Made by a program: the position numbers and the translations under genes. 64,000 bases of DNA. Origin: Glaucostegus cemiculus (Eukaryota). Shown one piece after another: positions 3,046 through 59,220 of the stretch (position 1 is the stretch's first letter; each line of letters opens with the position of its first letter). The stretch is from positions 1,798,001 through 1,862,000 of the forward strand of contig CDPCPM010000049.1 of the NCBI GenBank assembly GCA_976551045.1. The letters run 5' to 3'. The notes beneath the pieces are model-generated. The model saw only the letters and a program-made list of their open reading frames with translations. It did no database searches and was not told the origin of the DNA.

Positions 3046-4389
3046 TTAGAAAGGATTCTGAGGGATAGGATCTGTGAACACCTGGAGAGTCACAGACTGA
3101 TTAGGGACAGTCAGCATGGCTTTGTGAAGGGAAGATCTTGCCTCACGAGCCTGATAGAATTCTTTGAGGAGGTGACGAGGAAGCTTGATGAGGGCAGTGC
3201 GGTGGATGTAGTCTATATGGATTTTAGTAAGGCGTTCGATAAGGTTCCTCATGGCAGGCTTCTTCAGAAGGTCAGAGGTCGAGGCATCCAGGGGAGTTTG
3301 GCTGTGTGGATCAGGAATTGGCTTGCCGGTAGAAAGCAGAGGGTTGTGGTGGAGGGAGTGTCCTCGGATTGGAGGGCTGTGACTAGTGGTGTCCTGCAGG
3401 GATCGGTTCTGGGACCTCTACTCTTTGTTATATTTATAGATGACTTAGATGAAGGAGTGGAAGGATGGGTTGGTAAGTTTGTGGATGACACCAAGATCAG
3501 CGGTGTGGTGGATAGTGTGGAGGACTGTCGGAGCTTACAGAGGGATATTGATAGGATGCAGAGCTGGGCAGACAGGTGGCAGATGGAGTTTAATCCGGAG
3601 AAGTGTGAGGTGGTGCACTTTGGTAGGACGAACTCCAAGGCAGAGTATGAGGTAAATGGTAAGGTACTTGGCAGTGTAGCGGAGCAGAGGGATCTGGGGG
3701 TTCATATCCACAGTTCACCCAAAGTTGCCTCGCAGGTGGATAGGGCAGTTAAGAAGGTTTATGGGATGTTAGCTTTTATAAATTGTGGGATTGAGTTCAA
3801 GAGCAGAGAGGTGATGATGCTGCTTTACAAAACTCTAGTTAGGCTGCACTTAGAATATTGTGTTCAGTTCTGGTCGCCGCATTATAGGAAGGATGTGGAG
3901 GCGTTGGAGAGGGTACAGGGGCGATTTACCAGGATGATGCCTGGATTAGAGGGTATGGAATATGAGGAGAGGCTTAAGGTGCTAGAGCTCTACTCGTTGG
4001 AAAGGAGGAGGATGAGAGGGGACTTGATAGAGGTGTATAAGATATTGAGAGGAATAGATAGAGTTGACAGCCAGTGCCTCTTTCCCAGAGTGCAGATGCA
4101 CAAGACGAGAGGGCATGGCTTTAAGATATTGGGTGGAAAGTTTAGGGAAGATGTCAGAGGGAAGTTTTTCACCCAGAGAGTGGTTGGCGCATGGAATGCA
4201 CTGCCTGGGGTGGTAGTAGAGGCAGATACGTTGGACAGGTTCAAGAGATTGTTGGATAGGCACATGGAAGAATGTGGAATAGTAGGATATGTGGGAGGAA
4301 AGAGTTAGATTGTGAGACGTTTGAAGGATGGCACAACTTGGTGGGCCAAAGGGCTTGTTTTGTGCTGTATTTTCTATGGTTCTATGGTT
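3046..4389 (+). mobile_element. CR1-clade LINE, 5'-truncated, relatively young copy
   Basis: Starts LERILRDRI, carries the RT ORF, then a short 3'UTR with the GGGCCAAAGGGCTT stem-loop region and a TTCTATGGTTCTATGG tail. Confidence 0.95.
3124..4308 (+). CDS. CR1 ORF2 reverse transcriptase domain and C-terminus (394 aa open, N-terminally truncated, no endonuclease)
   Basis: Motifs GRSCLTSLIEFF, DVVYMDFSKAFDKVPH, GVLQGSVLGPLLFVIFI, FVDDTK, LEYCVQFWSPHYRKD, FFTQRVVGAWNALP. No native start, so it is part of a truncated TE and probably not expressed. Confidence 0.9.
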   Translation: MKGRSCLTSLIEFFEEVTRKLDEGSAVDVVYMDFSKAFDKVPHGRLLQKVRGRGIQGSLAVWIRNWLAGRKQRVVVEGVSSDWRAVTSGVLQGSVLGPLLFVIFIDDLDEGVEGWVGKFVDDTKISGVVDSVEDCRSLQRDIDRMQSWADRWQMEFNPEKCEVVHFGRTNSKAEYEVNGKVLGSVAEQRDLGVHIHSSPKVASQVDRAVKKVYGMLAFINCGIEFKSREVMMLLYKTLVRLHLEYCVQFWSPHYRKDVEALERVQGRFTRMMPGLEGMEYEERLKVLELYSLERRRMRGDLIEVYKILRGIDRVDSQCLFPRVQMHKTRGHGFKILGGKFREDVRGKFFTQRVVGAWNALPGVVVEADTLDRFKRLLDRHMEECGIVGYVGGKS

Positions 4390-6930: not shown

Positions 6931-8593
6931 TTTCGAGTTGGGATCTGCTGAACCCCCCACTCCCCACTTACTGGGATCCCAGTGTAAATCAATTTGAAGT
7001 TTGCTCCGGGACATATAAGCCTGACCCTGTTAATATTGTTCCATTTGAGCCTTCAGTGTTATTAAAAAGCTAGTTCTTCCATGGGTGAATGGAGGGACTG
7101 TGATTCAAACCAATCCAGAAACAAATTCTGGGCAATGCATGACTGCTGATGTCACTTGGCATGCTGGGCACAGAAACACAGCTCAAAGGTACACCAGGTC
7201 CTCACACCACATTGACTGGCATCAACTCAGGAACGTGTGCTAAATTCATTAACATTGCATTGATGTGACTTTTGACTGCATGGTTGTTTTTTGAGCTTTA
7301 CATGGACACTTTCTAGTTCGATATGCTTGATTAGGTTAAAGGTAGAGATGAGAAAAAAAGTGTATAAACTGGTAAAAAGAAGTTCGGGACTGATGTCAGG
7401 AAGCATTTCCTCATTTGGCCCAGATAACTTTAAGTTCACATTATGTAAAATAAGGGGGAATCAATTTGTCTGTTTGTTATACACCTTTGAGATTAAAGGG
7501 TGGGAATATGAAAAGGCCATCAGTCCGATCTTGCCCATTTTATGCATCACCTCTGAAGTCATCATATGATTGGATTCCGTAGGTGTCTCTAAACAAAATC
7601 TGTGCTTAGCCTTGTTTGGTAGAAGCATTTAAAGGGCTATAAGCCTTATCATGGAAGGGTTAATTACCTGTCTGTCAGTGGCTCTCCATGCGACTAACAA
7701 CAGTGCATTCACTTTTACTGTGAATTGAGTGATGATTTTCTGGCCTGCAGCTACACTCGGCTTCCTGCCGCTGCATTACAGCTAGTTTTTCGTCTCTCGT
7801 TCCATGCCCAGAGCCGGAGGATATTTAGGTGTGGTCTGACACATAGCAAAACAAATTTGGGGCTTTCTTCATGCCAGGCTATAAATCACTTTGCACTTAC
7901 ACAGTCCTTGGACGCACAGTTATTGCATGGAGCTCTCTGGTCCTGTTGTTTTGAGTGTCCAGCACCACTTAATGGACTGGAAAGGCAGGCAGACAGACAA
8001 ATGTCCCATTTACACACTGCAACAGGGCCTTGGTGGATTAGCTTGACTGCTAATAAACTAAACAAATCCACAGGTGACGGAGGATCTGTGTTTACACAGT
8101 GCCGAAATGAAAAGTCTGTCCATTGTAAGTGGTCAGAATGAATAAATAAAAAGACGTCATCATTTGGAATGCTTCCCTTGCATTTTGTTGGTGACTTTGG
8201 TTAAGTCAAACCTTTAGGGCATTTCTATTGTGCTTTCAGTGGACGATTGAATAAAAAGGAAGATTTTCTTGCATTCCCTTGTCAGTATCCTGAGGCATAC
8301 AAAAGTTTAGGACCCATTTGGGCATCTTTGAGAGGGGTCAACAGAACACAAGAAGGAAGAATAAAAAGGAACATTAAATAAACACTAAAACATACCATCA
8401 ATTGTGCCCAGAGGAAGATTTCATGCAACATGGACTTCAACTGCAAAGCAGATGAGAAGGGCATTGAACAGTTTTCACTGATATTCCGACAACATCCGAA
8501 GGATCACCATTGACCCAAACATTAAACTAGATCAATCCCATCATTGGAACAGCAGGAGCATTTACAGTTTAGAGTAAGTACAGTTCAGTTGCA

Positions 8594-15995: not shown

Positions 15996-17214
15996 CTCAT
16001 TCACACACAGCAGTTAATAATTAATTGATCCACAGGGTTGTGGTTTGGCCTCAGATACAACTGCATTATATGCCCTATTTTAGAGCTTCTTGCCATCTCT
16101 GTAAGCAAGCAATCTTTTAGCAGTGAGCTCCTTGTATAAAACAAATATATTTTAAAATATAGATAAGAAATAAATGGATGCATAAAATGGGTGACCCACA
16201 TTCATAATTCCATCATAATATTTAACTAAATTTTCTTTTGTAGAAGCATAATGTAAATACAAATTTTCTTTTCATGTATTTTAAACCAGTGTGAATTCTC
16301 CCATTGCCACAACTACTTCAGCTGAAAATTTCAAGCAGACTCTAAAGATTTGAATTGCTTCAAATCTACAAATGTCTTTTAAAGTGGTGAATGAAACTCA
16401 CTGTATTTTGAATAACTGTTAACCAATGTATACAAAAAAACCAGGCCATCAAAGTAACATAGTTTGGGAATCTTGATCTTTGCTTTTTTACAGAAATTAT
16501 TTGGGAGAAAATTATCTTCAAATGTGTGTTTTGAAATAAATTAAAGTCACATAGTATCTTTTTAGAAACTATTCCCAGACTTCAGGTATTGAAGATAGAC
16601 ATTAAATCCAGATGTGTTGCCTTATAGAATTTCAGCTTTCCTGTTTTCCTTATGTAAGAGCCATTTGACTCATCGCAGAAGCTAAGCTTGGAATATCCTC
16701 TTCATTTTGACACTGAAGGAAGGTCTTCCCTCAACATACAGTAAGGACAAGGTGACAGTGTGGAGAGGAGTAGCCAACTGGACTGACACACCTACTACTG
16801 TCACTGAATGGAGAACAAATCAGAGGGAAAACCACCTCAGTTCCTGAAAAATAGAAAGGGCGTGGGTCTGGGTCACTTCGCCAGGCAGCTGCTTCTGGGG
16901 AGGGAGTGTGGTTTAAAAAGGGAGAAAGATTCCTGGCCTGTCAGAAAGGGAAAGGCTGCCAGGAAACAAGCAAACCCATTTGGAGGGATAATGCAGGTTG
17001 CCTTGTACTTGATGAATGATCTGCAGGCAATTAGATCCAGGTGATTGTTGATAAGCTACTCCGCAGATTTATTTACTTTCTCCAAAGGAGCAGTGAACAA
17101 CTTTTTTGTGGGCAGGACCAGAGGGCTACTCACCAGAAGAAGTTGTACTTTAACCCTTTATAAATAGGTCCTGATATTTCAAACGATATTCAAAAAGTCT
17201 CACAGTGTTTGTTA

Positions 17215-17915
17215 CTCCATTACCATCTCCTCACTACCTCCCCTCTCTTCTTACTCCACTCCTCACTCTCCCATTCTCCCGTCCCTCTCCCCTCACTCCA
17301 CCACCTCAATCCTCACTCCACCTACTCTCCCCTCCTTCTCTCACTTCACCCCTCTCCAATCACTACTCATTCCCCCTTCACTTCCCTCACTGCCCTCACA
17401 CCACTGCACACACTGCCCCCTCCCCACTACACACACTGCCCCCTCACCACTGCACACACTGCCCTCATCACTGCGCACACTGCCCTCATCACTGCGCACA
17501 CTGCCCCCTCACCACTACACACACTGCCCCCTCACCACTGCACACACTGCCCTCATCACTGCGCACACTGCCCCCTCACCACTACACACACTGTCCCCCC
17601 ACCACTGCACACACTGCCCTCATCACTGCGCACACTGCCCTCATCACTGCACACACTGCCCCCTCACCACTGCACACACTGCCCTCATCACTGCACACAC
17701 TGTCCCCTCACCACTGCACACACTGTCCCCTCACCACTGCACACACTGCCCCCTCCCCACTGCACACACTGCCCCCTCACCACTGCACACACTGCCCTCA
17801 CTGCCCTCTCACTTCTGTACACACTGCCCTCTCACCTCTGTGCACACTGTCCTTTCACCACTGCGCACACTGCCCCCTCACCACTGCCACACTGCCCCCT
17901 CACCGCTGCACACAC
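17215..17915. repeat. CT-rich low-complexity tract followed by a 21/23-bp minisatellite
   Basis: About 20+ units of CACTGCACACACTGCCCCCTCAC / CACTGCGCACACTGCCCTCAT at about 17385-17915. This explains the His/Cys/Pro-rich ORFs. Confidence 0.95.
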
Positions 17916-17917
17916 CA

Positions 17918-18050
17918 CGCTCTCAGAACCTTGCCATCATGCAGACTCCTTTTTTGCCCCCAGCCTTGGATGATAAGGGGGAGGAGCAAAGGAGGCAGTG
18001 AGGACAGCAGGCGTGCTGTGATGGATTGACTCATCACCACAAGACTCCAG
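17918..18050 (+). pseudogene. Possible C-terminal remnant of a Harbinger (DDE_Tnp_4) transposase
   Basis: SQNLAIMQTP resembles LHNLAIMR, followed by an acidic stretch and …MD*LITTRLQ resembling the R-x-x-LI-x-x-RF end. Confidence 0.4.
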
Positions 18051-18269: not shown

Positions 18270-18800
18270 GGCTGAGAAATCTCTCACTGATGTTGAATTC
18301 TCCACCATAAGCATCCTGTGTGTTACAATTGATCATAAACTTAACTGGACCAGACATACAATTATTGTGGCTGCAAGATTCAGCATCCTGTGATGAATCA
18401 CCCAACTCCTGATCCCTCCAAAGCCTTCCCTCTATCAACATGTCAGGAGTGCGTTGGAATGTTCTCCACTTGCCTGAATGAGTGAAGCAGGACAAAGCAA
18501 CCTGCATGGTTGGGATTTCCCTTGACACCCTGAGAAACCCCTCCCACCAATGCAGCATGGCTGCACTCCTGTAACAGCACAAAATGCACAGGCACAATCT
18601 GCTGGAGTGTGTTGGACATATACACAGCCCATGATCAAGGGCAGGGCAGGGCAGCAACTGCATTGGAGTCACAGTGCAAGGAAGTATCATTAGTTGAAGA
18701 TAAAGACTCACCATGAACTTCTCAAGGGCAGTTAACGATGGGCAATCTATCTGTCCCTGGCAGTGACACCCACACCCCATTAGTGATTTAAAATAAATCG
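18270..18800 (+). mobile_element. Ancient CR1-clade LINE 3' part
   Basis: ISILCVTIDHKLNWTRH, VRSALECSPLA*MS, and a 3' end CTTCTCAAGGGCAGTT…GATGGGCAAT. Same family as 37900-38870. Confidence 0.7.
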
Positions 18801-18811
18801 CTGCTTGGAAT

Positions 18812-18920
18812 GAAAACATAAAATGCTGAAAACACTCAGCAGGTCAGGCAGCATGTGTGGAATGAGAAAACAGTTAACGTTCAGGTCTGAAACCCTTCAT
18901 CAGAACTGAGACAGAGAGGA
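18812..18920 (-). mobile_element. Penelope-type terminal repeat copy with hammerhead-like core
   Basis: Family signature ATGCTGCCTGACCTGCTGAGT on the minus strand, preceded by CAGTT-CTGATGA-AGGGTTTCAGACCT-GAA-CGTT-AACTG. Confidence 0.7.
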
Positions 18921-19418
18921 ATAAAATAGTCTTGGTAACGGAGTAGTTGGGGGGAGGTCATGGGATGGAACAAATCTGATAAGTTTGCCTTTGGGATACA
19001 TCCTGTTTTGACTTGGAAGCTGCTTTTGTGTTGCTGGATCAACACCTGCGTGTGATGGTGTTGAAGCTACCACTGTGTCTGTACCTTCATCACAAGGAAG
19101 CAGCTCCTCATTCCCTTCTCATGGCCAGTTCGGTACAACCATTAAATTGAAGCCTGATGAAGACTTCATTGGCCTTGTCCTCTGGTGTTAGGGCATCTCT
19201 CAGCATCCCCATGGGCCATTGTTCCTGAGTGTGACTCCTTCCGCTGTAGCTTGATGATTGACTTGGAGGGTTTCCCAGGCCCTTGAGAAAAGAGGATCCC
19301 TTTAAGAGGGACATATGCAGCTTCAGTTGGTACAAGTCAAAGCAATAAATGTAGCACTTGTGATCCTTGGATGCTGAGATCTTGACAACAATGTTCAAAT
19401 GGTACAGGCTAATTACAC

Positions 19419-19910
19419 ATTGGTATTGGTTTATTATTGTCACATGTACCTAGATACAGTGAAAAGCTTTTTGTTTTGTGTTCCATCCAAACAGATCATT
19501 CCATACATCAGTACATCAAGGTAGTAAAAAGAAAACAATGCAGAATATAGTATTGCAGTTACAGAGGAAGTGCAGTGCAGGTAGACAAATAAAGAGCAAG
19601 AGGCACGATGAGGTAGATTGGGAGATCAAGGGCTCGTTTCTTAGTGTACGAGGGATCTGTTTGAGAGTCCGATAATAATGGGGTAGAAGCTGTCCTTGAG
19701 TCTAGTGGTTCATGCTCTTAGGCTTTTGTATCTTCTGCTGATGGAAGGAAAGTGGCAGGGGGAAGACAGAATGACCAGGGTGGGAGTGGTCCTTGATTAC
19801 ATTAGCTATTTTCCCAAGGCAGCAGGAAGTGCAGACGGAGTCGGTTGTTTTGTGCGATGGACTGGGCTGTGTTCACAATTTCTTGCAGTCTTGGGCAGAG
19901 CAGTTGCCTC
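19419..19910 (-). mobile_element. Rex1/Babar LINE 3' fragment
   Basis: Tail ATTGGTATTGGTTTATTATTGTCAC on the plus strand. Minus strand encodes VIKDHSHPGHSV…PSSRRYKSLRA*TTRLKDSFYP. Confidence 0.8.
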
Positions 19911-20692: not shown

Positions 20693-20915
20693 AAATGCAG
20701 ATGCTGAAGTTCTGAAATAACAATACTGGAAACATTTAGCAGGTCAGACAGCATCTGTTTAGAGAGAAACAAAGTTAATCTTTCAGGATGAAGATCCTTC
20801 ATCAGAAGCAGGAGAGAAAGCAAGTTACACTAATTTAACTTCAAACTAATTTGTTTTCTTTGTCCCACTTCTGACAAAGGATCTTCGATCTGAACTCTGT
20901 TTTCTTTCCACTGAT
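20693..20915. mobile_element. Penelope-type fold-back element, two inverted partial arms
   Basis: The left arm (minus) contains CTGATGA-AGGAT-CTTC-ATCCT-GAAA. The right arm at 20866-20912 is a decayed plus-strand copy. Confidence 0.65.
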
Positions 20916-28770: not shown

Positions 28771-28935
28771 ACACTCAGCAGGTCAGGCAGAATGTGTGGA
28801 AAGAGAAACCAGGGGTCTCTGACATGAAACGCTAACTCTGTTTCTCTTTCTGTAGGTGCTGCCTGACACAATGAGTGTTTCCAGCGTTCTTCATTTTTTT
28901 TAATTTCAGGTTTCTAGCATCTGCAGTTTATTTGA
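28771..28935. mobile_element. Penelope-type fold-back element
   Basis: ACACTCAGCAGGTCAGGCAG…GGAAAGAGAAAC is inverted against GTTTCTCTTTCTGTAGGTGCTGCCTGAC…GAGTGT. The loop retains GAAACGCTAAC. Confidence 0.75.
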
Positions 28936-37899: not shown

Positions 37900-38870
37900 T
37901 TTTCTTATTCATTTTCAGAATCTGGGATTTGCCCGGAAGGCCAGCATTTATTGCCCATAGCTTATTGCTCTTGAGAAGGTGATGGCAAGCCACCACCTTG
38001 AACCTCTGCAGTCCTTCTGGTGGAGGTGCCCCCACAGTGCTCTGGAGGCGGGAGTTCCAAGGTTTAGACTTAGCAGCTATGAACAACCAGCGATACACTT
38101 CGAAATCTAAGTGGTGTGCAGCTTGAGAGAGGAATCCGTGGGTGGCGGTGGTTCCCAGGTGCCTGCTGCCCTTTTCTTTGGTGGTAGAGGTGCTGTCGGA
38201 GTAGTCTGGGTGAGTAACATGATACACACTACAGCCACGGTGGGCAGTGGTGGAGGCAATGAATGTTTTGTGTGGTGGATGGGCTGCAGTCAAGCAGGCA
38301 AGAAAGTGCAAAACTTGCTGAGAGTTTTTGGATCTACACTCATCCAGGCAGGTGGAGTGTATTTCATCATCCTCCTGACTTGTAGACCGCAGGAATTCTT
38401 TGGGGTGTCAGGGATGAGTCACTTGCCACAGCATACCCAAGCTCTGACGCTCTCATAGCAATGGTGCTTCTGTAGCCGCACCAACTGAGTCTCTGATCAG
38501 TAGTGACGGGCAATTCGACAATGGTAATGGAGACACAAGAGACTGTAGATGCTGAAATCTGGAGCAACCATAGAGGTGCTGGAGGAACTCGGCAGGTCAG
38601 GCAGCATCAAGAACTTGCTCCATCCCTTCCCTCCATCTTTTTGAACTGGTTGTCTCCCCCTTTCTTTCTGGTCTGGGTAGGGCATCTTGGCTCAAGGCGT
38701 CAACTGTCCATTTCCCTTCACAGATGCTGCCTGACCTGCTGAGTTTGCCCAGTGCCTTGTGTGTTGCTCGACAATGGTAATGCCATTGAATGTCAAGGAT
38801 AAGTAGTTAGGCTCTCTCAAATTGGAGATGGGCATTGCCTTGTGCTTTTGTAGCAAGCAGTTTACTGTAA
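37900..38870 (-). mobile_element. Ancient CR1-clade LINE 3' part, interrupted at 38530-38767
   Basis: Minus ORF contains KPWNSRLQSTVGAPPPEGLQRFKVVACHHLLKSN, matching the 18270-18800 family end. Confidence 0.7.
38530..38767. mobile_element. Penelope-type fold-back element with 15-bp TSD
   Basis: Inverted arms GGCAGGTCAGGCAGCATC / GATGCTGCCTGACCTGCTG, flanked by TCGACAATGGTAATG at 38515-38529 and 38768-38782. Confidence 0.85.
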
Positions 38871-39414: not shown

Positions 39415-39612
39415 TGCAATGCGCTGAAGGAACTCAGCAGGTCAGGCAGCATCTATGGAGGGAAATGGACAGTCAACATCATCCACATGAAAGGTCTCAA
39501 CCCAAAACATCGACTGTCCATTTCCCTCCATAGATGCTGCCTGACCTGCTGAACTCCTATAGCACTTTGTGTGTTGCTCCAGATTCCAGCATCCACAGTC
39601 TCTTGCGTCGTC
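39415..39612. mobile_element. Penelope-type fold-back element with a perfect 41-bp stem
   Basis: 39434-39474 is the exact reverse complement of 39512-39552, with a 37-nt loop. Confidence 0.9.
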
Positions 39613-47390: not shown

Positions 47391-47399
47391 TCTCCCTTT

Positions 47400-48480
47400 A
47401 GAATATAGAACAGTATAGCACAGGAACAGGCCTTTCAGCCCATGATGTTGTGCTGAACTAATTAAACAATTAACTGCCAAACTAAACAAATCCCTTCTGC
47501 CTACACAATGTCCATATTCCTCCATTCTCTGCACATTCATGTGCCTATCTAAGAACCTCTTAAAGCCTCTATTGTATTTGGCTCAACTACCACCCCTGGC
47601 AGTGCATTCCATGCACCCACCACTCTGTGTAAAAAAAACTTGCCTCACACATTTCTTTTGCATTAACCCCCTCTCACCTTAAATGCATGTCCTCTAGTAT
47701 TAGACATTTCAAACCTGGAAAAAAAGATACAGCTGTCTACTCCATTCATGCCTCTCGTAATCTTATCTTCTATCAGGTCTCCCCTCAGCCTTCACCACTC
47801 CAGAGAAATTAACCCAAGTTTGTCCAACCTCTCCTTATAGCACATTCCTTCTAATCCCAGCAACATCCTGATAAACCTCTTCTGCACCCTCTCCAAGGCC
47901 TCCACATCCTTCCTATAATGGGGCCACCAGAACTGAATGCAATACTCCTGATGCAGCCTAGGCAGAGCTTTATAAAGCTGCAACATAACTTCCTGACTTT
48001 TGAACTCATTGCCTCAACTAATAAAGGTAATCATGGCATCTGTTATCTTTACCACCCTATCAACCTGTGCAGCCACTTACAGAGAGCTATGGACTTGGAC
48101 CCCAAGATCTATCTGTACATCAGTGGACCCCAAGATCTATCTGTACATCAGTGGACCCCAAGATCCATCTGTACATCAGTGCTGTTAAGGGTCCTGCCAT
48201 TAACAGAGTACTGTTCCTTTACATTTGATCTCCCAAAGTGCAACACCTCACATTTACTTTCTCTGACTTAGAGAATATTAATTGTACTAGGAAATTATTT
48301 CACACTAAACACTACTTCTATCAGTTGCAGACATTGCTTTCATTTTTACTTTAATTGCTGAAGAAATCAAGATACTCACCTGATCCGACCTACCAATCAG
48401 CTGCCTCCCTGGCCTCACCGTTGGCGCTCCACTTCCAGAGTCAGTGACGACACGCTGCACTGACCCTTAAACTTTTCTTG
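47400..48480 (-). mobile_element. CR1-derived element: about 220-bp 5'UTR-like segment fused to RT C-terminus and 3'UTR
   Basis: 47400-48260 is a CR1 3' part (LQLYKALPRLHQEYCIQFWWPHYRKDVEALERVQ) with tail. 48260-48480 is non-coding and most of it recurs at 62300-62478. Confidence 0.8.
48096..48179. repeat. Triple tandem 28-bp duplication inside CR1
   Basis: TGGACCCCAAGATC(T/C)ATCTGTACATCAG three times, head-to-tail, no spacers. Confidence 0.95.
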
Positions 48481-52865: not shown

Positions 52866-54427
52866 AGATAAGTTGCCGGGATCGGATGAGATGTACCGCA
52901 GGTTACTGTGGGAGGTGAGGCAGGAGATTGCGGAGCCGCTGACAATGATCTCTCCATCGTCGATGGAGATGGGGGGAGGTTCCGGAAGATTGGAGGGTTG
53001 CGGATGTTGTTCCCTTACTCATGAAGGGGAGTAGGGATAGCCTGGGAAATTAGAGACTGGTGAGTCTTACCTCAGTGGTTGGTAAGCTGATGGAGAGGAT
53101 CCTGAGAGGCAGGATTTATGAACATTTGGAGAGGTATAGTATGATTAGGAATAGTCAGCATAGCTTTGTTAAGGGCAGGTCCTGTCTTACAAGCCTGATA
53201 GAATTTTTTGGGGATGTGACTAAGCACATCACTGAAAGGAGAGCGGTAGATGTAGTGTAGATGGATTTCAGCAAGGCGTTTGTTAAGGTGCCCCATGCGA
53301 GGCTTATGGAGAAGGTGAGGAGACATGGGATCCAAGGGGACATTGCAGTGTGGATCCTGAACTGGCTGGCCCACAGAAGGCAAAGAGTGGTTGTTGAAGG
53401 GTTGTATTCTGAGTAGAGGTCGGTGACCAGTGGTGTGCCTCAGGGGTCTGTACTGGGACCCTTACTCTTTGTCATTTTTATAAATGACCTGGATGAGGAA
53501 GTGGAGGGGTGGGTTAGTAAGCTTGCGGATGACACGAAGGTTGGTGGTGTTGTGGATAGTCTGGAGGACTGTCAGATGTTGCAGAGGGACATAGACAGGA
53601 CGCAAAGTTGGGCTGAGAAGTGGCAGATGCAGTTCAACCCAGATAAATGTGAAGTGGTTCATTTTGGTAGGTCGAATATGTTGGCGGAATATGGTATTAA
53701 TGGTAGGACTCTTGTCAGTGTGGAGGATCAGAGGGATCTTGGGGACCGAGTCCATAGGACGCTCAAGGCGGCTGCGCAGGTTGACTCTGTGGTTAAGAAG
53801 GCATATGGTGTATTGTCCTTCATCAGTCGCGGAATTGAATTTAGGAGCCGAGAGATATTGTTGCAGCTATATAGGTCCCTGGTCAGACCCCACTTGGAGT
53901 ATTGTGCTCAGTTCTGGTCACCTCACTACAGGAAAGATGTGGAAGCCATAGAGAGGGTGCAGAGGAGGTTTACGAGGATGCTGCCTGGAATTTGGATCTT
54001 GCCTTATGAGAGCAGGTTGCGAGAACTCGGCCTTTTCTCCTTGGGGGGAAGGTAGAGAGGGGGGACCTGATAGAGGTGTATAAGATGATGAGAGGTATTG
54101 ATCGGGTAGATACTCAGAGGCTTTTCCCCAGGGCTGAAATGGTGGCCACAAGAGGACATAGGTTTAAGGTGCTGGGGAGTAGATATAGAGGAGATGTCAG
54201 GAGAAAGTTTTTTTTTACTCAGAGTGGTGAGTGTGTGGAATGGGCTGCCGGAGGCAGTGGTGGAGGTGGATACGATAGGGTCTTTCAAGAGACTGTTAGA
54301 TAGGTACATGGAGCTAGGTAAAATAGAGGGCTATGTGTAAGCCTAGAAATTTCTAGTGTGGGGATATGTTCGGCACAGCTTTGTAAGCCGAAGGGCCTGA
54401 ATTGTGCTGTAGTTTTTCTATGTTCTA
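52866..54427 (+). mobile_element. CR1 LINE, 5'-truncated, RT with in-frame stops
   Basis: DKLPGSDEMYRRLL…VSLTSVVGKLMERIL…SGVPQGSVLGPLLFVIFINDL…LADDTK…FWSPHYRKD. TAG stops near 53258, 53413 and 54053. TTCTATGTTCTA tail. Confidence 0.95.
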
Positions 54428-54677
54428 AACAGAAACTGAAGGGGCAAATGGAACACAGAGGCATAACATGGTCAATAGACTGCATGTGCACCCTGAACTT
54501 TGGCCCAGGACAGAAGAAAAAATAAAACACTTGTCAAACTACATGCAAAGCATAGCAAAAGCAATAGAAGACAATGATAAGTTACTGGTTGAACAATTGT
54601 ATGATCCAGGTCAGTTGTCCACCCATATGGGATGAATATCTGTATTTACTGTTTAAATGCCACAACTACTTGTAACT

Positions 54678-54880
54678 TGGAGCAACAAACAATCTGCTGG
54701 AGGAACTCAGCCGGTTGAGCAGCATCTGTGGGGGAAAGGAATTGTCCTGGTGCAGGGTTTCGACCTGAAATGGCAACAATACCTCTCTCCCTACAGATGC
54801 TGCTCGACCCACTGAGTTCCTCCAGCAGATTATGTGTTGCTCCAGATGCCAGCATCTGCAGCCTCTCGTGTCTCCATTTT
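54678..54880. mobile_element. Penelope-type fold-back element with 10-bp flanking duplication
   Basis: Arms AATCTGCTGGAGGAACTCAG…GAGCAGCATCTGT / ACAGATGCTGCTC…CTGAGTTCCTCCAGCAGATT. TGTAACTTGG occurs at 54671-54680 and 54887-54896. Confidence 0.8.
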
Positions 54881-57054: not shown

Positions 57055-59220
57055 TCAAAATTAGGTTTATTATCACTGACGTATATCATGAAATTTGTTG
57101 TTTTGCGGCAGCAATACAGAGCAACACATAAAAATTACTATGTTACCAAAACAAAAGGTGCAAAAGAGGAATAACGAGGTAGTTATTGGGTTTATGGAAT
57201 ATTCAGAAGTCTGATGGTAGAGGGGAAGAAACTGTTCCTAAAACATTGAGTGTGGGTCTTCAGGCTTCTGTACCTCCTCCCTGATGGAAGTAACAAGAAG
57301 AGGGCATGTCCCGCCGGTGAAGGTCCTTAGTGATGGATGCCACCTTCTTGAGGCACTGCCTTTTGAAGATGTCAAAAGGAATGCCCAGGGAATTATAGAC
57401 CGGTGAGTCTTACCTCAGTGGTTGGTAAGCTGATGGAGAAGATCCTGAGAGGCAGGATTTATGAACATTTGGAGAGGTATAATATGAGAGGAACAGTCAG
57501 CATGGCTTTGTCAAGGGCAGGTCCTGCCTTACGAGCCTGATTGAATTTTTTGTGACTAAACACATTGATGAAGGGAGAGCAGTAGATGTAGTGTATATGG
57601 ATTTCAGCAAGGCATTTGATAAGGTACCCCATGCAAGGCTTTTGGGGAAGGTGAGGAGACATGGGATCCAAGGGGACATTGCAGTGTGGATCCAGAACTG
57701 GACGGCTCACAGAAGGCAAAGAGTGGTCGTTGAAGGGTCATATTCTGAGGGGAGGTCGATGACCAGTGGTGTGCCTCAGGGGTCTGTACTGGGACCCTTA
57801 CTCTTTGTCATTTTTATAAATGACCTGGATGAGGAAGTGGAGGGGTGGGTTAGTAAGCTTGCGGATGACACGAAGGTTGGTGGTGTTGTGGATGGTTTGG
57901 AGGGCTGTCAGCGGTTACAGAGGGACATAGACAGGATGCAAAGTTGGGCTGAGCAGTGGCAGATGCAGTTCAACCCAGATGAATGCGAAGTGGTTCATTT
58001 TAGTAGGTTGAATATGTTGGTGGAATATAGTATTAATGGTAGGTCTCTTGGCAGTGTGGGATCAGAGGGATCTTGGGGACCGAGTCCAAAGGACGCTCAA
58101 AGCGGCTGCGCATGTTGACTCTGTGGTTAAGAAGTCATATGGTGTATTGTCCTTCATCAATTGTGAAATTGAATTTAGGAGCCGAGAGGTATTGTTGCAG
58201 CTATATAGGTCCCTGGTCAGACCCCACTTGGAGTATTGTGCTCAGTTCTGGTCGCCTCACTACAGGAAAGATGTGGAAGCCATAGAGAGGGTGCAGAGGA
58301 GATTTATAAGGATGCTGCCTGGAATGCGGAACATGCCTTATGAAAGCAGGTTGTAGGAACTCGGCCTTTTCTCCTTGGAGAGACTGAGGGTGAGGGGGGA
58401 CCTGAGATAAGATGATGAGACGTATTGATCGGGTGGATAGTCAGAGGCTTTTCCCCAGGGCTGAAATGGTGGCCACAAGAGGACATAAGTTTAAGGTGCT
58501 GGGAAGTAGATATGGAGGAGATGTCAGGGGAATGTTTTTTTTTACTCAGAGAGTGGTAAGTGTATGGAATGGGCTGCCGGAAACAGTGGTGGAGGTGGAT
58601 ACAATAGGGTCTTTCAAGAGATTGTTGGATAGGTACATGGAGCTGAGTAAAATAGAGGGCTATGGGTAAGCCTAGTAATTTCTAGAGACATGTTTGGCAC
58701 AGCTTTGTGGGCCGAAGGGTCTGAATTGTGCTGTAGATTTTTTATGTTTCTATGTCCTTGATGGTGGGGAGGTTGTGCCCATGATGGAGATGGCTGAGTC
58801 TACAACCCTCTGCAGCCTCTTTTGATCCTGCACATTGGAGCCTCCATGCCAGGTGGTGATGCAACCAATGAGAATATTCTCCACTATACACCTGTGGAAA
58901 TTTGCAACAGTCTTTGGTGACCTACCAAATCTCCTCAAACTCCTAATGAAGTAGAGTCGTTGGTGTACCTTCTTCGTGTTTGCATCAATGTGTTGGCCCA
59001 GGATAGATCCTCTGAGATGTTGATGCCCAGAAATTGAAGCTGCTCACCCTTTCCACCACTGACCCCTCAATGAGAACTGATGTGTGTTCTCCCGACTTCC
59101 CCTTCTTGAATTCTGCAAACAATTCCTTGCTCTTGCTGACATTGAGTGTGAGGTTGTTGTTGCAACACTACTCAACCAGCCGATCTATCTCACTCCTGTA
59201 AACCTCCTGGTCACCATCTG
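57055..59220 (-). mobile_element. Rex1/Babar LINE 3' part, split by a CR1 insertion
   Basis: Minus ORF RRFGRSPKTVANFHRCIVENILIGCITTWHGGSNVQDQKRLQRVVDSA (58750-58938) continues past the CR1 into KKVASITKDLHRRDM…LPSGRRYRSLKTHTQCFRNSFFP (57375-57210). Confidence 0.85.
57373..58755 (+). mobile_element. CR1 LINE, 5'-truncated, frameshifted; same subfamily as 52866-54427
   Basis: RT motifs DVVYMDFSKAFDKVPH, GVPQGSVLGPLLF, LADDTK. Long near-identical stretches with the 52.9 kb copy. Confidence 0.95.

Follow-up and report, generated by a model that had tools for sequence, protein, structure and literature searches.

A likely inert minimal hammerhead motif in a truncated Penelope-like element end of Glaucostegus cemiculus

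A 38-nt motif on the minus strand of Glaucostegus cemiculus DNA, at positions 18871-18908 of the 64,000-nucleotide stretch analysed here (the window), is very probably the minimal type I hammerhead of a Penelope-like element (PLE) terminal repeat, lying in a 174-bp 5'-truncated copy and likely inert. Repeat masking and alignment place this copy, hereafter the stub, at 18801-18974 on the minus strand, where it comprises the 3' UTR/pLTR, the hammerhead and the tail of the element. The segment 3' of the hammerhead (18801-18870, minus strand) includes a 20-mer shared by the family (18835-18854) and the element end.

A sequence-only reading had claimed a hammerhead-like motif at these positions, and the letters agree with it exactly: from 18908 down to 18871 the minus strand reads CAGUU CUGAUGA A GGGUU UCA GACCU GAA CGUU AACUG. 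The 5' strand of stem I, CAGUU (18904-18908), has U at position 2.1, as is usual in the stub's subfamily, where the younger subfamily has C. It is followed by the intact core box C3-A9, CUGAUGA (18897-18903), and, in the fold, by an extra A and stem II, GGGUU/GACCU, with the loop UCA and a closing G.U pair (18883-18896). The second core box reads GAA at 18880-18882, so the loss of one A from GAAA that the reading had reported is real in these letters, and both alignment and genome matches identify it as a missing A of G12-A13-A14-A15.1. The palindromic ACGU (18880-18877), which would form a loopless stem III, and U17 together span 18876-18880, and the 3' strand of stem I, AACUG, closes the motif at 18871-18875. 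Numbered by the core definition of PMC3088659, the predicted scissile bond is 18876/18875, after a GUU triplet. Stem I has 5 bp, and stem II also has 5 bp, including two G.U pairs.

Set against the minimal hammerheads of PLEs, the stub copy has the CUGANGA box (18903-18897), helices I and II with an extra nucleotide before helix II, given as a typical trait of the minimal form in PMC4209133, and a palindromic 15.1-16.1 stretch without loop 3 (ACGU). Its GAAA box (G12-A15.1) is GAA only, and a G.U stands in place of the G10.1-C11.1 pair. Because the GAAA box is incomplete, the copy is filed, on its letters, as a decayed homologue and not as a complete minimal hammerhead. U17 was considered as a further defect and ruled out, since H17 permits U in the definition of PMC3088659 and UU ends five of seven minimal motifs at loci of the intact PLE family.

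The stability of the 38-mer is ordinary (z = -0.97; 33 of 200 shuffles fold equally well), and in the fold of lowest energy the core is paired rather than left open. Rfam gave no hammerhead match in the window at E <= 10, and none in five loci with intact-core copies or in three loci of another PLE family; since it misses intact-core copies too, Rfam is blind to the minimal form and its silence is uninformative.

The link to PLEs comes from longer copies. A 740-aa ORF of the same genome, above cut-off for the Pfam domains RVT_1 and GIY-YIG, was used as a tblastn probe, and longer copies of the family were found to extend 5' from the hammerhead into same-strand GIY-YIG and RT remnants. For the stub's subfamily, 20 loci were picked by GIY-YIG-coding DNA alone, the query locus among them; at 12 of the 19 others (13 of 20 with the query) the stub's terminus lies a few hundred bases 3' of the GIY-YIG remnants, on the same strand and with the same tail letters, which upholds the earlier suggestion that the family is PLE-derived. 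Identity between the stub and 34 relatives is 77-88%, with a median of 83%, and the stub aligns over its full length at 77% with loci L014 and L012, both of which extend into GIY-YIG remnants. For a sister subfamily, the 2.4-kb alignment of L120 with L121 runs from RT through GIY-YIG and hammerhead to tail, and five of its 20 long loci (L133, L135, L136, L139, L145) have inverted 5' terminal copies. At L122 (oriented 3512-3862) there is also a 44-bp tandem repeat whose units consist of tail sequence from an inverted terminal copy. The family thereby has the marks of an EN+ PLE: a terminus 3' of same-strand RT and GIY-YIG coding, 5' truncation, inverted terminal copies and a tail. A CX2-5CxxC linker stands ahead of the nuclease at L120, L166 and L175-L178 and, judged on this motif alone, the stub's family would belong to the Neptune/Nematis type.

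The adjacent RT and GIY-YIG ORFs that the sequence-only reading expected in full-length elements are present as same-strand remnants; among 40 long loci inspected in the sister subfamily, a non-exhaustive set, there was no intact ORF and no full-length copy carrying a 5' terminal repeat in direct orientation. The intact ORFs of 738-740 aa that give the best GIY-YIG matches were rejected as parents of the stub, as they come from a separate PLE family whose hammerhead differs.

Copies of the family share their 3' ends, most of them ending 35-85 nt past the start of the 20-mer, and have ragged 5' ends. Together with the described PLE mechanism, in which reverse transcription begins in the tail (an anole element, PMC11167929), these ends imply an early-stop origin for the stub: reverse transcription would have begun in the tail, immediately 3' of the hammerhead, and halted after ~170 nt, and such early termination would leave stubs like 18801-18974. 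In the active master, two copies of the motif paired through ACGU would have cut tandem precursor RNA after GUU, probably assisted by the element's protein. It is very unlikely that the short copies are instead a non-autonomous mobile unit in their own right, SINE-like or a non-LTR retrozyme, that spread via RNA circles and not by truncation. Most copies are short, and of the 34 loci of the stub's subfamily selected on the terminus just 5 continue without a break into coding remnants; non-LTR retrozymes are moreover PLE-derived and have been found in one chondrichthyan (bioRxiv 10.64898/2026.07.22.740005). The 5' ends of the family, however, are ragged, scattered over distances of ~55 to >900 nt 5' of the 20-mer and passing gradually into the ORF, and the stub is solitary and not in tandem, whereas the same preprint defines retrozymes as tandem units each with a full hammerhead.

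Around the stub, no target-site duplication of at least 6 bp was found. Allowing up to 3 mismatches, 11 places in the window match the 20-mer where chance predicts 0.01, a count that none of 100 shuffles attained and that agrees with the previous estimate of about 11 copies. BLAST with both subfamily ends gives 15 remnants in the window, one of which (20774-20805) retains CUGANGA..GAAA..UH. The nearest same-strand remnant, 1.9 kb upstream of the stub (20696-20820, minus strand), keeps CUGAUGA and GAAA; because it has the non-palindromic AGAU instead of ACGU it would make a poor dimer partner, and as far as the letters go the stub is without a suitable tandem partner. No PLE coding remnants were found within the window. 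Nor was a host exon identified there: comparison of 138 of the 169 non-repeat frames of at least 62 aa with Pfam gave two sub-cut-off matches, in a scan that would miss short exons.

The window holds several other repeats. Four head-to-head pairs of family stubs form long hairpins (28771-28888, 38527-38769, 39423-39609 and 54678-54877), and Rfam miRNA matches at 54694-54828 were discarded as spurious, the sequence there being merely a head-to-head stub pair. Another very abundant repeat adjoins the stub (19415-19908), with a sharp start near 19419-19425, and a pyrimidine-rich minisatellite at 17164-18026 is open in all three forward frames. LINE reverse transcriptase remnants, which we take to be CR1-like, lie at 3046-4384, 47396-47917, 53417-54432 and 57483-58748, and the first of these is open for 420 aa (3046-4305).

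Across the 2.85-Gb genome the family 20-mer has 26,632 exact matches (control 0). The intact-core pattern has 1,604 exact matches in its younger form and 31 in the form of the stub's old subfamily with GAAA, and the reversed-pattern control gave 0 for each. Counts that include copies picked by their hammerhead are biased, and subfamily letter counts were made on the unselected set that remains when these are excluded, namely 141 copies: 28 old, 86 young and 27 unclassified (untabulated). Sixteen of the old and 70 of the young copies reach the motif. A consensus lacking CUGANGA or GAAA had been named in advance as telling against the motif; column-majority letters in both subfamilies hold both boxes and spell the complete core CUGANGA, GAAA, UH with palindromic ACGU.

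Pair 2.1-1.1 distinguishes the subfamilies. It is U-A in five of nine parsed old copies; among 54 parsed young copies it is C-G in 33 and C-A in 16, the latter read as CpG decay, and none has U at 2.1. Stem covariation between the subfamilies consists of this one compensatory pair, a single event inherited by many copies, and one such change between master lineages fits selection acting during the element's active period. The old subfamily is further marked by U17 and by a G.U at 10.1-11.1 (U at 11.1 in 9/9 and 8/8 parsed copies). Several copies (L107, L108, L124, L140, L143, L145) have CUGAUGC for CUGAUGA, with C at core position 9 and in some a distinct tail, and these possibly share the core change of a further subfamily. 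At L021-L023, L027, L028 and L030 (contigs C1 and C3) family hammerheads sit inside a larger repeated unit, GA-rich upstream, that runs 0.7-1.5 kb beyond the tail at 75-88% identity; by this arrangement they are secondarily amplified.

Individual copies have decayed. Among unselected copies reaching the motif, the strict intact core is present in none of the 16 old and 3 of the 70 young, and it is absent from all 12 GIY-YIG-linked old copies. Of the 86 young copies, 50 keep G and 32 have A at G12, and at the neighbouring 11.1, C stands in 49 and T in 33; the catalytic G12 thus decays at its CpG as fast as the non-catalytic neighbour. G12 is the general base (PMC6155905). Outside CpG the core is kept better than the pyrimidine linker in the 70 young copies (0.90 vs 0.83, p = 0.009, Fisher test with kinship ignored), a comparison confounded by the filtering of copies on CUGAUGA, by the mixing of sub-lineages and by three unfiltered tail positions that also reach 0.87-0.91; we give its p value no weight. 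The stub copy itself has likely decayed neutrally since insertion.

A look-up for RNA data sets that contain the stretch listed none. RNA was available as two runs of a related organism, B, tissue not stated, of which 18% and 24% were sampled. They contained 3,972 and 4,699 placed family reads in both orientations, all but one in each run partial. Depth was zero on the unique flanks of the stub (18750-18799 and 18940-19020) in these two samples, and they showed no pile-up of molecule starts or ends, such libraries being a weak test of cleavage. Published minimal PLE hammerheads cleave weakly as dimers (PMC4209133), and for the anole element cleavage needs the element's protein and is dispensable for insertion in vitro (PMC11167929).

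These data bear on a reading in which the stub, unable to act as the enzyme half, offers its intact substrate half, GUU/AACUG, to an intact copy that cuts it in trans, so that passing host RNA is cleaved. The stub retains 16.2-17 and the 3' half of stem I without change, potential enzymes number at least 31 old-type plus 1,604 young-type exact intact-core matches in the genome, and family sequence is present in organism B RNA in both orientations. We nevertheless hold this to be most unlikely: recognition would be limited to 5+2 bp, minimal PLE hammerheads are weak even as cis dimers (PMC4209133), organism B has no read on the unique flanks and no end pile-up, and with the nearest same-strand copy stem III would be mismatched. 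There is likewise only the slimmest chance that the stub's subfamily represents a natural U17 / G10.1.U11.1 hammerhead variant with a six-base AACGUU palindrome, and that the genome's many intact-core copies still cut host transcripts carrying substrate halves like the stub's, as a genome-wide RNA-cleavage network. If intact copies did cut host RNA, this would be relevant to gene regulation; nothing here supports such cutting.

The preferred reading, an inert motif in a truncated PLE end, also concerns the missing adenine. In an alignment of the stub with its 19 best relatives, the stub is the sole row gapped in GAAA (1 of 20), and the old-type pattern minus one A has a single genome match, the stub locus, against 31 with GAAA. 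Single-copy contigs from three related organisms reach the stub locus with unique flanks. The orthologous contig of organism D (18833-19020) puts 182 letters on 188 places with 6 gaps; it shows deletions alone, and so has no inserted letter at 18879. That of organism B (18750-18908) has 0 gaps, with only 29 letters beyond the deletion against the 31 advised for bridging. A further 19 and 29 contigs, taken as paralogous, carry the extra letter. Because the orthologous contigs of organisms D and B also lack the letter, the loss of the A likely predates the split of these species and is no assembly slip. Long reads commonly drop single letters in runs, and for X1, the closest organism, the contigs listed include none placed uniquely across the motif, but a slip in a short A run that hides a core-intact copy has next to no probability, given that the letter is absent in the orthologous contigs of two other organisms and that the paralogous contigs show it. 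In the scheme of PMC3088659, A13 and A14 belong to the core where mutation disqualifies a hit, and some natural core variants are active, including one with an insertion in GAAA; no test of exactly this one-A deletion was found in the literature. With one core adenine missing, the stub motif is likely inert.

A different, young PLE family is present in the same genome, at L054:150-215 and 7618-7683 on the plus strand (G000:C744) and further at L056:2921 and L062:1325. Its tandem unit is 7,468 bp long with the first 1,533 bp repeated at 100%, and an 855-aa open frame without a Pfam match precedes the 740-aa RT and GIY-YIG frame. For the L054 hammerhead a full helix III (ACUGG/CCAGU with an 8-nt loop) and an 8-bp helix I with a GUC site are possible, so that, in contrast to the minimal motifs, a monomer might be able to cut. 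This shape is absent from the minimum-energy fold, and Rfam has no match to it. The L054 hammerhead deserves more attention than the stub. Minimal hammerheads of the young family also occur at L051:7076-8900 (minus) and L062:6386-7480 (plus), where degenerate units of ~0.8-1.1 kb repeat in tandem next to the ORF; these units are retrozyme-like, and GUU ends most of their hammerheads.

As a single copy the stub is transposon debris, of little weight. Its family is a large natural variant set, with 26,632 20-mer matches, >1,600 intact cores and at least two subfamilies joined by a compensatory pair, and as such is useful for the question of what PLE hammerheads do, a role called unclear in PMC8557442.

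The arrangement is already published, minimal hammerheads having been described in PLE terminal repeats (PMC4209133). Compared with those metazoan pLTR motifs (Cervera and De la Pena 2014), the stub differs by its missing core A and by U17; the published motifs conserve G10.1-C11.1, where the stub's subfamily has G.U, and the schistosome motifs have a helix II of 7-8 bp against 5 bp in the stub. The main-text parts of that paper do not name cartilaginous fish, although its supplements may list motifs from them. A literature search found nothing on this PLE hammerhead in cartilaginous fish; PLEs are reported from all vertebrates studied, elephant shark included (PMC4350176). The stub's family may be in Repbase or Dfam already.

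EN+ PLEs of the Neptune/Nematis type (PMC8557442) have, like this family, RT followed by a C-terminal GIY-YIG, 5' truncation, an inverted 5' copy and a tail, and they share with it the CX2-5CxxC linker before the nuclease; the copies seen of the stub's family differ in being all broken and 71-86% alike. Non-LTR retrozymes (bioRxiv 10.64898/2026.07.22.740005) have in common with the stub a derivation from PLEs, a type I hammerhead and a non-coding nature, but they are tandem units with complete motifs, whereas the stub is solitary and its core is broken. In PAc (Poseidon) of Anolis carolinensis (PMC11167929) the hammerhead lies next to the tail, as in the stub's family, and there too no RNA-seq reads end at the cut site. 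PAc is intact and assayed and its ORF starts inside the hammerhead, whereas the stub's family is known from sequence alone and, unlike PAc, no ORF start was found following its motif. By analogy, PAc would be the best guide to mechanism, which points to protein-assisted cleavage.
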